64,000 nucleotides of DNA from Felis catus (taxonomy: Eukaryota), in the NCBI RefSeq assembly GCF_018350175.1, contig NC_058370.1, forward strand, positions 310,001-374,000, read 5' to 3'. A program made the position numbers and the translations under genes. Below, piece by piece: positions 176 to 55,702 of this stretch (its first letter is position 1; each line of letters opens with the position of its first letter). The notes beneath the pieces are model-generated. The model ran no database searches and was not told the origin of the DNA. It worked only from the letters and a program-made list of their open reading frames with translations.

Positions 176-3100
176 TCATGCGGGCCGTGGTACTGTCTCA
201 GAGGTCTTGCAGGCGAGGGCCACATCCTTGGCAATGCTGCGCACACGGTCAGACACCTGCATCTCCCGGCGCAGGGCAGGAGCACAGCAGAACTTTCGGA
301 AGCAGGCCTTGAAATTCTCGTCCAAGAAAGCGTAGAGGATGGGGTTGAGGCAGCTGTTGACGTAGCCGAGGGCCGTGCAGAAACGCAGAACGGCCACTGC
401 GGTCTCACTGCCCGGCTGAACGCCCAGCCCTTGGACCAGCACGAAGACCTGGACGGGCGTCCAGCAGCCCACGAACACCGCCACCACCACCAGCACCAGC
501 CGCGTGATGCGCCTCAAGTTCCGGTCCTTCTCCCGGGAGCCGGACAGCAGGCGGACGCCACGCAGCCGCCGGATCATGAGGCTGTAGCAGATGGAGATGA
601 TGAGCACGGGGATGATGAAGGAGAAGAGGAAGATGCCGATGGCAAACACGGGGCCCCAGTAGTCCTGTGGGGCGGGGATCTCCACGAGACACTCAATCTC
701 TGCAGGGAGAAACACAGGGTCAGGGTGAGCGAGCCGGCACGGGGCCCTCTGGGGCCAGAGGACGACAGCACGGGGGAGGGGGGCCACCCACCGACCTTCG
801 TCCTCGACCTGCGCCGAGCCCATGATGGCGACAGGAACACCAACGACAGACGCCAGAGCCCAGATGGCCACGTTGACGGCCTGGGCCTTGCTGGACGTCC
901 GGACATCGAGAGCGCGGATGGGGTGGCAGATGGCTACATAGCGGTCCACGCTCATGGCGGTCAGCGTGAAGGTGCTGGTAAACATGTTGTAATAGTCGAT
1001 GGCAATGACTGTCTTGCACAGAGCATTTCCAAATGGCCAGAAGCCCAGGAGGACATCTGTGCCCTGGAAGGGCAGCGTCAGCAGCACCAAAGTGTCCGCC
1101 AGAGCCAGGTTAAAGATGTAAATGTTGGTGGCTGTCTTCATCTTGGTGTGCCTGCGGAGAGCACAGGGGGAAGGAAGACCTGGCCCAGTCCCTCTGGCTG
1201 GACCCGGCGGCGGAGGCCCGGGGGCCTTTCTTGTTGCCACCACCAGGAGCACCCGCCCCGAGACCCGTGTGGGAAGGCGGGCCCCCGGGCCCGGCACGAG
1301 GGACTTGGGGCACAAAACTGTGCCTCTGGCACACACAGAAGGCTTCCGAACCCCCAAACCGGTCCGCTTTGGGAAGGCTGGGATGTCAGGCAGCAGCAGA
1401 CCACCCCTGTGACTCCACGTGGGAGCAAGGGGACAGGAATCTTCAGAAAAAGGACCAGTCCCCCTCCCTGCCTTCCAAGTCTTCCTGAAGACAGTCCACG
1501 GACTACGATGTGGGCCCTAGACACACCAGAGGTTCCTGAGGGCTCCAGGGTCTGTAAAAGCACATCAGAGGCCTTCCGGTCCATGTTGTGGTCCGGCCAT
1601 AGAGACAGGAAACGGCACCAGAAATGGGAGGTGTGCCAACAAGACCTGGCTGTATCCAAGGGACAGGTCCGGGGACCTTATAGTTACGGAATAAACACCT
1701 GTCGAGTGGGGCACCTAGGTGGCTCAGTCACTTAAGTGCCCGACTGGCTCAGGTCACGATCTCGTGGTTCACGAGTCTGAGCCCCACATCAGGCTGTCAG
1801 CGCAGAGCCTGTTTGGGACCCTCTGTCCCCCTCTCTCTGCCCCTCCCCCACTCGTTCTCTCTCCCTCCCTCTCTCTCTCTCTGTCCCTCAAAAGTAAATA
1901 TATATTTTAAAAAATAATAAATAGGGGTGCCTGGGTGGCTCAGTTGGTTAAGCATCCAACTCTTGGTTTGGGCTCAGGTCACGATCTCATGGCTTCATGG
2001 GTTCAAGCCCCGCATCAAGCCTGCGCTGGCCGTGCAGAGACTGCTTGAGACTCTCTCCTCTCTCTCTGCCCCTCCCCTACTCGCACTGTCTGTGTCTCTT
2101 TCAGAATAGATCAATCAACTTTAAAAACCATCAAAAAATAATAAATAGCAAATAAATGCTTGTTGAATGAATCAATAGTTATCATGGTGGCAATGGAGGT
2201 GGTGGTTGTGGTGGGGATGGTGGTGGAGAGAATGCTGGGGACGGTGGTGATGACGGTGATTGTTGTGGCAGTGGTGGTAATTAAGGTGGTGGTGATTGTG
2301 GTGGTGGTGGTCGCACAACGCCAAAGATGTTGCCGTCACCAGGAACACCAATGTTCCCTGTAAACTCAGCTGCCATAAGGGAATCTGGGGGTCAGTGCTG
2401 CCTCTCAGAGAAGGATTAGAAACAAGCACAAACAGACCTTAATTATGACCAGATAAGAGCAACAATGACCACAGTGGCAGACACCTGAGCCAAGCTCTCA
2501 CATGGATTTTATCTCATTTAAATTTCAAAGATGCGTTGAAAAATAAAATTTAAAAAAAATAAATAAATAAATAAATAAATAAATAAATAAATAAATTTCA
2601 AAGATGCGGGGCGCCTGGGTGACTCAGTCAGTTAAGCGTCCGACTTCAGCTCAGGGCGTGATCTCACGGTCCGTGAGTTCGAGCCCCGCGTCAGGCTCTG
2701 TGCTGACATCTCAGAGCCTGGAGCCCGCTTCGGATTCTGTGTCTCCCTCTCTCTCTGCCCCTCCTCTGCTCATGCTCTGACATTCTTTCTCCCTCAAAAA
2801 TAAATAAACATTAAAATATTTTTTAATTTCAAAAATGCTATTTTGATCCCCACTCTATGCAAGAGGACCCTTAGGCTCAGAGGATCTAAGTGGCCTTGAA
2901 AAGAGCTGGCAAAAAAGCAGAGAGGATCAAGAGAACTAGAAGACGAGCCACAGACAGGAGGAAAGATTTGCCAAAGATGCATTTGATGCAGGCTGCTGTC
3001 CAGAATACACAAGAAGGCTTAAAACTCGACAATAAGAAAACTAAGACTTTAACAGACACCTCACCAGTGAAAACAGCAACGAGATTCTGCTACACACCTC

Positions 3101-53455: not shown

Positions 53456-55702
53456 CTAGGAGTCCTCGGAGGCTGCTGCACGCAGCGCGAAGAGCTTCTC
53501 CCAGCAGGTGGCGACGGTGTCCAGGACACGCAGGAGGAGCCGCCTCCGGCTGTGGCTGCGGCTGCGGCGACTCCGAGGAGGGTGCCTCTTGGGCCACCGG
53601 CTCCTCCTCCGCTGTCAGGGGCAGAAAGGTCAGCGAGTGACCACGGTCTCTGCGCCCTCCCCTCCCCCTCCCAGATGGGGACACCGCGGGACGGTGGGAG
53701 GCTCAGGGGACCTGTGGAAGGGGAGGGACCCGGGTCTGGCCCCACACACCTGGCGCATCATCCAGCAGTGGCGCCGCATCACTGCTTCGGTGCGCAGGGC
53801 TACAGTCCACGCGGCTTTCTCCAGTGCCCCGCGGCGGTGGCCCCGGGCCACCACCCTGCGCAGGGTCCGACCCAGGGACGCAATGGACAGCAGGATATCG
53901 TGCTCCTGGGAAAGGAAGGGAGGAAATTGGGGGCTGAGGAGAGGAGCTCAACGGGGAGGCCCCGGAGGGGAACAGCGTGAGTCTCCCCCCATACCTTCTG
54001 GGCACCGCAGGAAGCTCCCACCCGATCCCGATCCCGCCATCCGAGGACTGCAGCTCCAGTCAGGTTTTTCTGGATGAAATGGAGGTGTCGGGAGCCTGGC
54101 CCGACCTGCCTCACAGCAGCCTGCAGGTCCTCAAAGATGACCACACGGTAGTGGCGGAGCACGTCAGGGATGCTGCAGGTGCGGAGCCCTGCCTGACCCG
54201 GTGCGAGCCCCAGCAGAGCCAGCAGGAGCGCCCAGAGTGCAGGCTTGGGAGGCACCTGGAAGGGACGCGGGGTCAGGGTGGGGTGCCCAGGCGGGCAGAG
54301 GAGACCTTCCCTACAGCAACCCCTCAGGCAATTTGCTTTGGACGGCCCCCTACCACAGCCACCAGGGACTCTCTGAACTACAGTAGAAAATGAAAGGTCA
54401 CTGTGCCATTCATCGCCCAAGCATGGGTCTAGCAGGACAAACCCCTTCCTGTTTCAAGTCTGAGGGAAGGATAGATAGTAGGCCTGCGAACCAGACAGCT
54501 CAATGCTTGATGCATAGATTGGCGGGCTGGAGGATGGCCAGGGGTGAGGGTGAGGGTGGGGGGAGGCGGGCTGGGAAGGCAGGCCCACTGAGCCCTGAGG
54601 GGCCAAGAAGGAGACAGAGGGCTCCAGAGCAGGAACTCTGTGCTCTGTGTGCATGGGAACTAGGGGCTCACAAGACTGGAGGGCAGGGCTGACCCCTAGG
54701 TCTAGGGGTCCAGCGGGAAACACTACCTGCCGGTATGGCTACACCCCTGGCTATCCCCTAACTCAACCCCACACCTCCCAGACATCAGTCCCCACCAGAC
54801 AGCCAGGCTCTCTCCTCCTGATGAGCACCCCCTGATCCCCAGAACGTTGCTCACCTCTGGGTCCCCAGAGCAGGGGCAGAACTAACCCACCCCCACAGCC
54901 GTGGGAAATGGGGTGCCCTTGTACCTCCAGCCCAACCAGGACAGGGGTGAGGGCTCAGAGCTCAAGGCCACACCCCTCTGAGGAGGGGAGGAAGTCTTGG
55001 GGAATCCCCCAGAGGCAAGGGAGAAAGGGGCCACACTGTGCCCCACCAGGCATCCCTTTCACGAGCCTCCCCCTCCAGAAGGGGCTGGCTTGGGGAGAAA
55101 CCCACCACCACCCTCCCCCTAGAAGCCCAAACATCAAAGAGAAAGACCGGCTAGTTCCCAAACAGCGACTAGAAAATTAATCATGTGAACCCAGCGAGAC
55201 GCAGGACTCGACTCGGCTTCCCAGCCCTGGGAGGGGAGCCTGACCGAGCTGGGGACCTGGGGTGCAGCGCTGGCAGGAGGAGTGGGTGCCTTTAGCTGTG
55301 GCCCCTCCTCAAATCTGCCCCCAGGCATGCTGGGGGTGGGGTCAGAGGTCACAGCAAGAACAAGAGCTGTGGGTGTGGAGAGCCGTCCACATGGGGGAGA
55401 TTGGCTGCCCAGCTCTAGGAAGGCCTGCCTGTCCCCCACCCCAGCCAGTGAGAACCGAGCAGCCCTGGTACCGCCGGGCAGACCCCCACCCTTCCCCCCC
55501 CCCCCCCCCCCCCCACTGCCGGAAGGACAGGCAAGAGCACCCAGGGCCAGGCCTGCCAGGCCCTCCAGGCCAAGGTGACAGGAACCAAGGGAGGTTTCCC
55601 AGTAGGGGACAGACGCTCAAGCAGCCTCCCCTGGACTATGCTCGGTCCCAAACCCTCGACCAGAGTGAGCCCCCTCCCCACTGGCCCCACACTGCTCACC
55701 AT
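53456..55702 (-). CDS. C20orf204: C20orf204 ortholog, predicted secreted 191-aa protein. Exons 55700-55702 (ATG only), 53995-54255, 53750-53905, 53456-53611
   Basis: M|VPPKPALWALLLALLGLAPGQA (signal-like) GLRTCSIPDVLRHYRVVIFEDLQ...SCGAQK|EHDILLSI...AVMRRHCWMMRQ|RRRSR...LLLRVLDTVATCWEKLFALRAAASEDS*. All introns are GT-AG phase 0 and total 576 nt. The ATG|GTGAGC first exon is inferred. Confidence 0.88.

Follow-up and report, generated by a model that had tools for sequence, protein, structure and literature searches.

The position of C20orf204 in the cat genome raises the question of whether this gene and the cytokine gene IL7 descend from one locus that was doubled in an early vertebrate genome duplication. 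We examined this question in a stretch of 64,000 nucleotides from Felis catus (NC_058370.1, positions 310,001 to 374,000 of the forward strand), here called the window. The window lies close to one end of the 140-Mb contig C10 of the assembly that was searched (G000:C10:310001-374000), so that G000 is the window's own genome. An initial annotation had seen OPRL1, RGS19, TCEA2, SOX18, and C20orf204 in one block and had proposed, from paralog pairs of the neighbors, that C20orf204 and IL7 are ohnologs, i.e., sisters by whole-genome duplication. Our analysis indicates that C20orf204 very probably belongs to the IL-7/TSLP cytokine family, likely as its third member, and that it is likely the ohnolog of IL7. 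The paralogon in which both genes lie has long been known.

Gene structure and sequence likeness to IL-7

C20orf204 lies on the minus strand and, as predicted from the sequence and from agreement with database proteins, has four coding exons, GT-AG introns that are all in phase 0, and a product of 191 amino acids; helix assignments are from an AlphaFold2 (AF2) model. Exon 1 (positions 55700 to 55702) is the ATG alone, followed by a phase-0 GT donor, and the resulting N terminus agrees with the felid RefSeq-named proteins P0001 and P0002. Exon 2 (53995 to 54255), which corresponds to exons 2 and 3 of IL7 together, encodes a predicted signal peptide, Cys28, helix A, an AB loop with an N65-L-T sequon, and Cys84; its peptide is 99% identical to the cheetah and Geoffroy's cat proteins. 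Helices B and C and Cys135 are encoded by exon 3 (53750 to 53905), and exon 4 (53456 to 53611) encodes a basic CD loop, helix D with a C-W-x-K motif (Cys176), and the stop codon. About 160 nt 3′ of the stop is a candidate polyadenylation signal (53288 to 53293, minus strand). Hydropathy at the N terminus peaks at 2.63 at residue 8, and an Arg-rich segment precedes the last helix.

The four cysteines are conserved across C20orf204 proteins, with Cys28 and Cys135 invariant. Of 81 aligned proteins, 72 have C-W-x-K (several of the other nine have different C termini) and 67 have a sequon. By hydropathy, rather than by a signal-peptide predictor, no hydrophobic stretch is stronger than the N-terminal one in any of eight C20orf204 proteins checked, from felid to skate. 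The product is a predicted secreted four-helix cytokine, and its gene is common to jawed vertebrates. Fish and amphibian proteins (P0161, P0172, P0169, P0177, P0179, and P0180) have at least six cysteines and those of amniotes four, a BC-loop/CD-loop pair having been lost.

A mammal-only C20orf204 profile gave 78 matches among 1.84 billion representatives, 20 of which were looked up. Named orthologs came from platypus, turtles, birds, a caecilian, a newt, and sturgeon (many of them NCBI "C20orf204 homolog" entries), and opossum was among the matches; proteins of unnamed loci came from alligator, lungfish, and a skate cluster. Two of the 20 (P0179 and P0180) are nameless and fish-like in appearance, with no species given, so no teleost ortholog is established. 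The bird orthologs lie on sequences of 12 to 20 Mb, which is compatible with a microchromosome. A restriction to mammals, which would have spoken against ohnology, was looked for, and the orthologs instead reach skate. IL7 and its neighbor ZC2HC1A are reported to be conserved from sharks to humans (PMC6936713). Both genes are therefore older than the split between sharks and bony fish, as ohnology needs. Four database models of C20orf204 (P0005, P0052, P0122, and P0186) are named after or fused to its neighbors PRPF6 or TCEA2; a turtle C20orf204 protein carrying the TCEA2 name is an indirect hint that the neighborhood extends beyond mammals.

IL-7 is the only credible match of the vertebrate-wide C20orf204 profile in the PDB. 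A profile of 28 vertebrate sequences (A2) matched 3 of 177,635 PDB sequences at an E value of ≤10: IL-7 came first (E = 0.0016), aligned from helix A to helix D, and the other two were fibrinogen fragments (E > 1). With a 68-sequence profile, IL-7 again led (E = 0.0022; next match, 0.38). A mammal-only profile of 40 sequences did not find IL-7 in the PDB; vertebrate-wide profiles alone do so, which may explain why the link was overlooked. The IL-7 set comprised seven carnivore proteins, and that of TSLP one. On A2, panda IL-7 scored 26.6 bits and felid IL-7 13.9 bits against a maximum of 12.0 in 1,000 shuffles (shuffle maxima, 4.8 to 12.0 bits), a modest signal. With regard to the pi-helical kink expected in helix A of this family, C20orf204 and IL-7 align without gaps from the Tyr onward, and DSSP output, which does not mark pi turns, shows a continuous helix.

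C20orf204 thus resembles IL-7 (PF01415; PDB 3DI2) in four aligned cysteines, the helix-A Tyr, the helix-D C-W-x-K, a tiny first coding exon, a full-length profile match, two phase-0 intron positions, and a paralogous chromosome. It differs in lacking the AB-loop/helix-D Cys pair of IL-7, in its long basic CD loop, in a first intron of phase 0 rather than 1, and in that one intron is apparently coding in placental C20orf204.

Exon boundaries give separate support for homology with IL7. The exon breaks of IL7 fall 11 residues past the helix-A Tyr and 4 residues past the Cys that precedes helix B; in TSLP, the distances are 14 and 3. C20orf204 has an exon break 4 residues past its pre-helix-B Cys, as in IL7, and its exon 2 contains a 45-nt in-frame GT...AG stretch (54070 to 54114, minus strand) exactly 11 residues past the helix-A Tyr. 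The residues of this stretch are missing from the platypus, turtle, bird, sturgeon, and skate proteins. An insert at this place measures 15 to 24 residues in placentals and 22 to 34 in two marsupial models, and there is none in the opossum model or in nontherians; in several placental proteins, its donor-position residue is not Val. We infer that the stretch is probably a shrunken intron made permanently coding, a remnant of the post-helix-A intron of IL7 and of nontherian C20orf204. IL7 and C20orf204 would then agree in the positions of two phase-0 introns, and TSLP would differ from them in both.

Felid IL7 itself has five exons, the first of 10 nt, and translates cleanly into 158 amino acids (G000:C46:27695381-27753534, loci L004 to L010, minus strand); the human and panda IL-7 proteins have an extra CD-loop exon. 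Three database models of felid IL-7 (P0198 to P0200) end in an unrelated C terminus without helix D. Felid TSLP apparently has five coding exons, the first of 4 nt and followed by a phase-1 intron (G000:C1:170504680-170508930, loci L014 to L016), and the signal peptides of felid TSLP and IL7 both start with V-x-F-R-x-I-F.

Further family members were sought in two ways. Searching G000 with the felid C20orf204 protein returned the window's own exons alone (three matches), a search too insensitive to exclude other members. No fourth member was detected in 600 kb beside SOX17, SOX7, TCEA3, STMN1, and STMN4, a weak negative given the marginal power of the scan, in which the true last exon of IL7 scored 10.6 to 12.6 bits and its other exons fell outside the top rows. 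One helix-D-like match 40 kb past SOX17 (12.8 bits) was rejected, being by eye a degenerate long interspersed element 1 (LINE-1) without partner exons.

Paralogous location of C20orf204 and IL7

IL7 lies at 27.70 to 27.75 Mb on the minus strand of contig C46. Ten families that flank C20orf204 were searched in G000, and C46 holds a paralog of every one, bearing out the paralog pairs given in the initial annotation. From one end, these are NPBWR (5.79 Mb, plus strand), OPR (6.00 Mb, minus), RGS (6.55 Mb, plus), TCEA (6.57 Mb, minus), SOX17/18 (6.94 Mb, plus), DNAJC5 (16.65 Mb, plus), STMN (28.41 Mb, plus), TPD52 (28.76 Mb, minus), ZBTB (29.11 Mb, plus), and SAMD (62.4 Mb, minus). For matches outside the window, names such as OPRK1, STMN2, and ZBTB10 are labels that we assume from the order of genes in human. 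The C46 copy ranked first among nonself matches in all five pairwise protein searches (OPR, RGS, DNAJC5, ZBTB, and SAMD). The block NPBWR-OPR-RGS-TCEA-SOX matches C46:5.8-6.9 Mb with order and strand kept for five of five genes, and strand is kept in 9 of 11 markers when the cytokine itself is included.

Because the window block matches a site about 21 Mb from IL7, its support is at the level of the chromosome only (C46 makes up 3.4% of the genome). The local link rests on three families represented outside the window: TPD52L2, ZBTB46, and STMN3 lie 0.14, 0.21, and 0.32 Mb beyond C20orf204, and the distances from IL7 to the TPD52, ZBTB, and STMN paralogs are 1.0, 1.4, and 0.7 Mb. The placement of these three near IL7 given in the initial annotation therefore holds, all being within 1.4 Mb. 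The share of G000 that has at least three of the ten families within 1.5 Mb is only 0.22% (0.30% for 2 Mb and 1.1% for 5 Mb); this null is a genome fraction per base rather than per gene, and allowing for two candidate relatives doubles the figure. TSLP, at C1:170.5 Mb, is off the paralogon, with none of the ten families within 5 Mb.

C17, C13, and C11 carry additional paralogs, which fits the four-fold structure of the opioid-receptor paralogon. Stathmin and TPD52 matches that have no introns and fall outside this paralogon (G000:C17:167886262-167886576 and C31:32074646-32074942) are probably retrocopies. The 8q/20q-type pair is the second-round duplication pair, and the ranking of the C46 copies as best matches is consistent with this. 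The paralogon, formed in the two rounds of vertebrate genome duplication (2R), comprises opioid-receptor, RGS, and stathmin families on chicken 2/3/20/23 (PMC2865548) and is described as four-fold also in PMC6354393. The window block and C46 fit it; the available portion of PMC2865548 lists no cytokine family in it.

Taken together, the neighborhood argues for C20orf204 and IL7 as ohnologs in that they lie on paralogous chromosomes and that paralogs of three neighbor families are within 1.4 Mb of IL7, and against it in that the window block maps 21 Mb away, gene order differs, and no immediate neighbor is common to the two. The initial annotation had also taken synteny as evidence independent of the sequence motifs, and here we differ: synteny does not stand alone and speaks for ohnology only after homology has been established.

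Within the window, the gene order is OPRL1 (minus strand), an LKAAEAR-family open reading frame (ORF; plus), RGS19 (plus), TCEA2 (minus), SOX18 (plus), C20orf204 (minus), and PRPF6 (minus). The block seen initially is thus present as described, together with PRPF6 and the LKAAEAR-family ORF, and its given ends were exact: position 176 is the OPRL1 stop, and the C20orf204 ATG starts at position 55702. The OPRL1 coding span (176 to 6003) includes an ORF at 176 to 1516 that matches 7tm_1 (E = 2.6e-64), and its closest nonself match is at C46:6.00 Mb (minus, 66% identity). The LKAAEAR-family gene (12901 to 13914; PF15478, E = 9.4e-24), which the initial gene list lacked, is flanked by the coding regions of OPRL1 and RGS19. 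RGS19 (20868 to 23193) has its closest nonself match at C46:6.55 Mb (plus, 76% identity). The coding span of TCEA2 (24930 to 32846, 3′ end approximate) and SOX18 (43373 to 44734, 5′ part under N and start unseen) have their paralogs at C46:6.57 Mb (minus) and C46:6.94 Mb (plus). The other immediate neighbor of C20orf204, represented by 3′ exons at 58103 to 63999, is presumably PRPF6, a name that agrees with the database fusion model P0122.

Alternative origins and functions

Several results weigh against C20orf204 as a secreted cytokine and ohnolog of IL7, and we consider them here with the explanations to which they point. The best surviving of these is that C20orf204 and TSLP form the closer pair, with TSLP a later, relocated copy of the C20orf204 gene and IL7 the ohnolog of both. 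This explanation is compatible with and overlaps the one that we favor, and we give it a real but clearly lesser chance. The helix-A spacing C-x8-Y occurs in all 81 C20orf204 proteins and in TSLP, and IL-7 has one residue more. A basic CD loop occurs in both (for TSLP, PMC7396566), and the extra cysteine pair of fish and amphibian C20orf204 is placed like Cys90-Cys137 of TSLP. TSLP exon 2 was the top match among 9,706 genomic fragments, and TSLP has no paralogon neighbor of its own. Felid TSLP scored 17.6 bits on A2 (felid IL-7, 13.9; panda IL-7, 26.6), 9.5 bits on A1 (5.2 and 4.7), and 13.8 bits on A3 (8.5 and 13.9), and it stood above both IL-7 proteins on the mammal-only profile; its match to the C20orf204 profiles is mostly signal peptide and helix A. 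Pfam TSLP (PF15216) matched 3 of the 28 profile members (best E = 3.9e-4, for a protein from a rodent), and Pfam IL7 (PF01415) exceeded its curated cutoff in none of the 28 (control panda IL-7, 195 bits); unrelated Pfam families reached E values of 0.002 to 0.003. An hhalign comparison with felid IL-7 gave 4% probability, an uninformative value obtained with a truncated isoform that lacks helix D. The first intron is in phase 1 in both IL7 and TSLP and in phase 0 in C20orf204, which sets C20orf204 apart from IL7 and also counts against pairing it with TSLP.

C20orf204 and TSLP (PF15216; PDB 5J11 and 4NN5) are alike in helix-A register, basic CD loop, tiny first coding exon, five-exon ancestral layout, a weak Pfam match, and structural alignment (VIA-align Z of 9.8 to 10.6). 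They differ, however, in the two intron positions and in C-W-x-K, which agree with IL7, and in chromosomal location. C20orf204 also lacks the W-R-R-x-x-R receptor site: the receptor-binding arginines of TSLP (Arg149/Arg150/Arg153) after the helix-D Trp have a counterpart in 1 of 81 C20orf204 proteins. Solved TSLP sequences did not score at an E value of ≤10 in the PDB profile searches. Within the trio of C20orf204, IL7, and TSLP, we favor IL7 as the probable closest sister, but not firmly, since TSLP scores about equally in some sequence tests.

A second explanation accepts homology with IL-7 and attributes it to a small-scale duplication or transposition, the position in the paralogon being a coincidence or the relic of an older tandem pair. 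A collinear position was sought and not found: C20orf204 and IL7 have no immediate neighbor in common, and C20orf204 precedes SAMD10 and DNAJC5, whereas IL7 follows the DNAJC5 paralog (DNAJC5B). The SOX17 block on C46 lies 20.8 Mb from IL7, and at a radius of 1.0 Mb just one family is near IL7, as is true of 1.4% of the genome. The families were picked for expected paralogs and not blindly, with PRPF6, LKAAEAR, and other neighbors left out; synteny was examined in the one mammal genome, and a family member, TSLP, lies outside the paralogon. About 450 million years on, a 2R pair need not have kept its immediate neighbors, although the lack of shared ones lowers certainty. Against this explanation stand the chance figures of 3.4% for C46 and 0.22% for a place within 1.5 Mb of three neighbor paralogs (roughly double for two candidate relatives), and the presence of both C20orf204 and IL7 in cartilaginous fish (for IL7, PMC6936713). 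We consider it improbable.

Third, mammalian C20orf204 may, whatever its origin, now be an intracellular nucleolar, nucleolin-binding factor and not a secreted signal. The felid protein is strongly basic (38 K+R versus 13 D+E), as would suit such a factor, but Arg-rich proteins can enter nucleoli nonspecifically. The dominant N-terminal hydrophobic segment, the four conserved cysteines, and the sequon in most of the aligned proteins also argue against it. The human ortholog C20orf204-189AA, the LINC00176 product, is described as a nucleolin-binding liver-cancer protein that is found mainly in nucleoli and speeds growth on overexpression (PMC7969625). The same paper reports EndoH-sensitive forms of 24 and 26 kDa and partial costaining with the endoplasmic reticulum (ER). 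These two results fit secretory entry, and the mainly nucleolar location does not. "Signal peptide," "secret," and "cytokine" have no occurrence in the available text of PMC7969625. On balance, a purely nucleolar role seems unlikely to us.

The remaining explanation places C20orf204 in a different subfamily of helical cytokines (IL-6/IL-11, growth-hormone, or IL-10 type), with a convergent likeness to IL-7 and irrelevant synteny. AF2 gave four-helix models for the turtle and felid proteins (predicted local distance difference test [pLDDT] scores of 82 and 74). With the turtle model, VIA-align ranked IL-7 first (Z of 11.5, root mean square deviation of 3.1, 111 residues aligned), followed by IL-11 (11.4), CLCF1 (11.1), and mouse TSLP (10.6); with the felid model, IL-11 led (11.2), followed by IL-7 (10.6), IL-6 (10.5), and TSLP (9.9). 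IL-15 (8.3), IL-21 (6.0), and IL-9 (5.8) scored lower, and the top 23 to 30 rows were all cytokines, with the program's own warning that Z values below about 13 are common for helical bundles. Foldseek returned no match at an E value of ≤0.001 and placed CNTF and IL-27 at the top and IL-7 at rank 18, and ESM features (ESM Atlas) pointed to IL-10/IL-22, EPO/TPO, IFN, and IL-34 clusters and not to IL-7; each of these two results indicates a helical cytokine and nothing finer. PROST likened C20orf204 to interleukins and growth hormone (somatotropin), with IL-7 unnamed in the available text (PMC9992864). The modeled fold thus suggests a class I cytokine and does not separate IL-7 from IL-11, IL-6, or CLCF1; it is sequence and introns that point to IL-7/TSLP. 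Another subfamily is nevertheless very unlikely: IL-7 scored in the PDB profile searches, long-chain and IL-10-family sequences did not, and it is with IL-7 that the cysteines, the Tyr, C-W-x-K, and two intron positions line up.

Implications for the IL-7 family

In the history that we favor, with C20orf204 as the ohnolog of IL7, one ancestral IL-7-like gene in the opioid-receptor paralogon would have been doubled when the genome duplicated in early vertebrates. On the 8q-type chromosome it would have become IL7 and on the compact 20q-type chromosome C20orf204, and later shuffling may have parted IL7 from the SOX17 block. The predicted signal peptide would lead the C20orf204 protein into the ER for N-glycosylation and secretion. 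By the known disulfide pairing of IL-7, two IL-7-type disulfides may form (C28-C135 and C84-C176). Putative signaling would run via IL-7R-alpha and a second chain, or via a related class I receptor. Two ligands of IL-7R-alpha are known, IL-7 and TSLP, and the pathways of both are drug targets. This receptor is the best guess, given that both relatives already bind it by way of a promiscuous hydrophobic site (PMC5382266).

The IL-7/TSLP family and synteny are absent from the available portions of PMC7969625 and PMC9992864. No paper connecting C20orf204 with IL-7 or describing them as ohnologs turned up in a literature search, judged mostly by titles and abstracts, that did not extend to subscription journals, supplements, or ohnolog databases. 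In zebrafish, il7 mutants have a much milder phenotype than il7r mutants do, and an il7r/crlf2 ligand has been predicted and not found (PMC6936713). We tentatively raise the possibility, one that we would not yet bet on, that C20orf204 is a third natural IL-7R-alpha ligand, born with IL7 when the jawed-vertebrate genome doubled and kept in humans, and that its fish ortholog is the predicted zebrafish il7r/crlf2 cytokine in thymic T-cell development. The C20orf204 ortholog is a testable candidate for that missing ligand. If the family assignment is true, a conserved third member, now filed as a peptide of a cancer long noncoding RNA, would be a candidate human cytokine. The ohnolog link, if true, would date the expansion of the family to the origin of jawed vertebrates and of their adaptive immunity.

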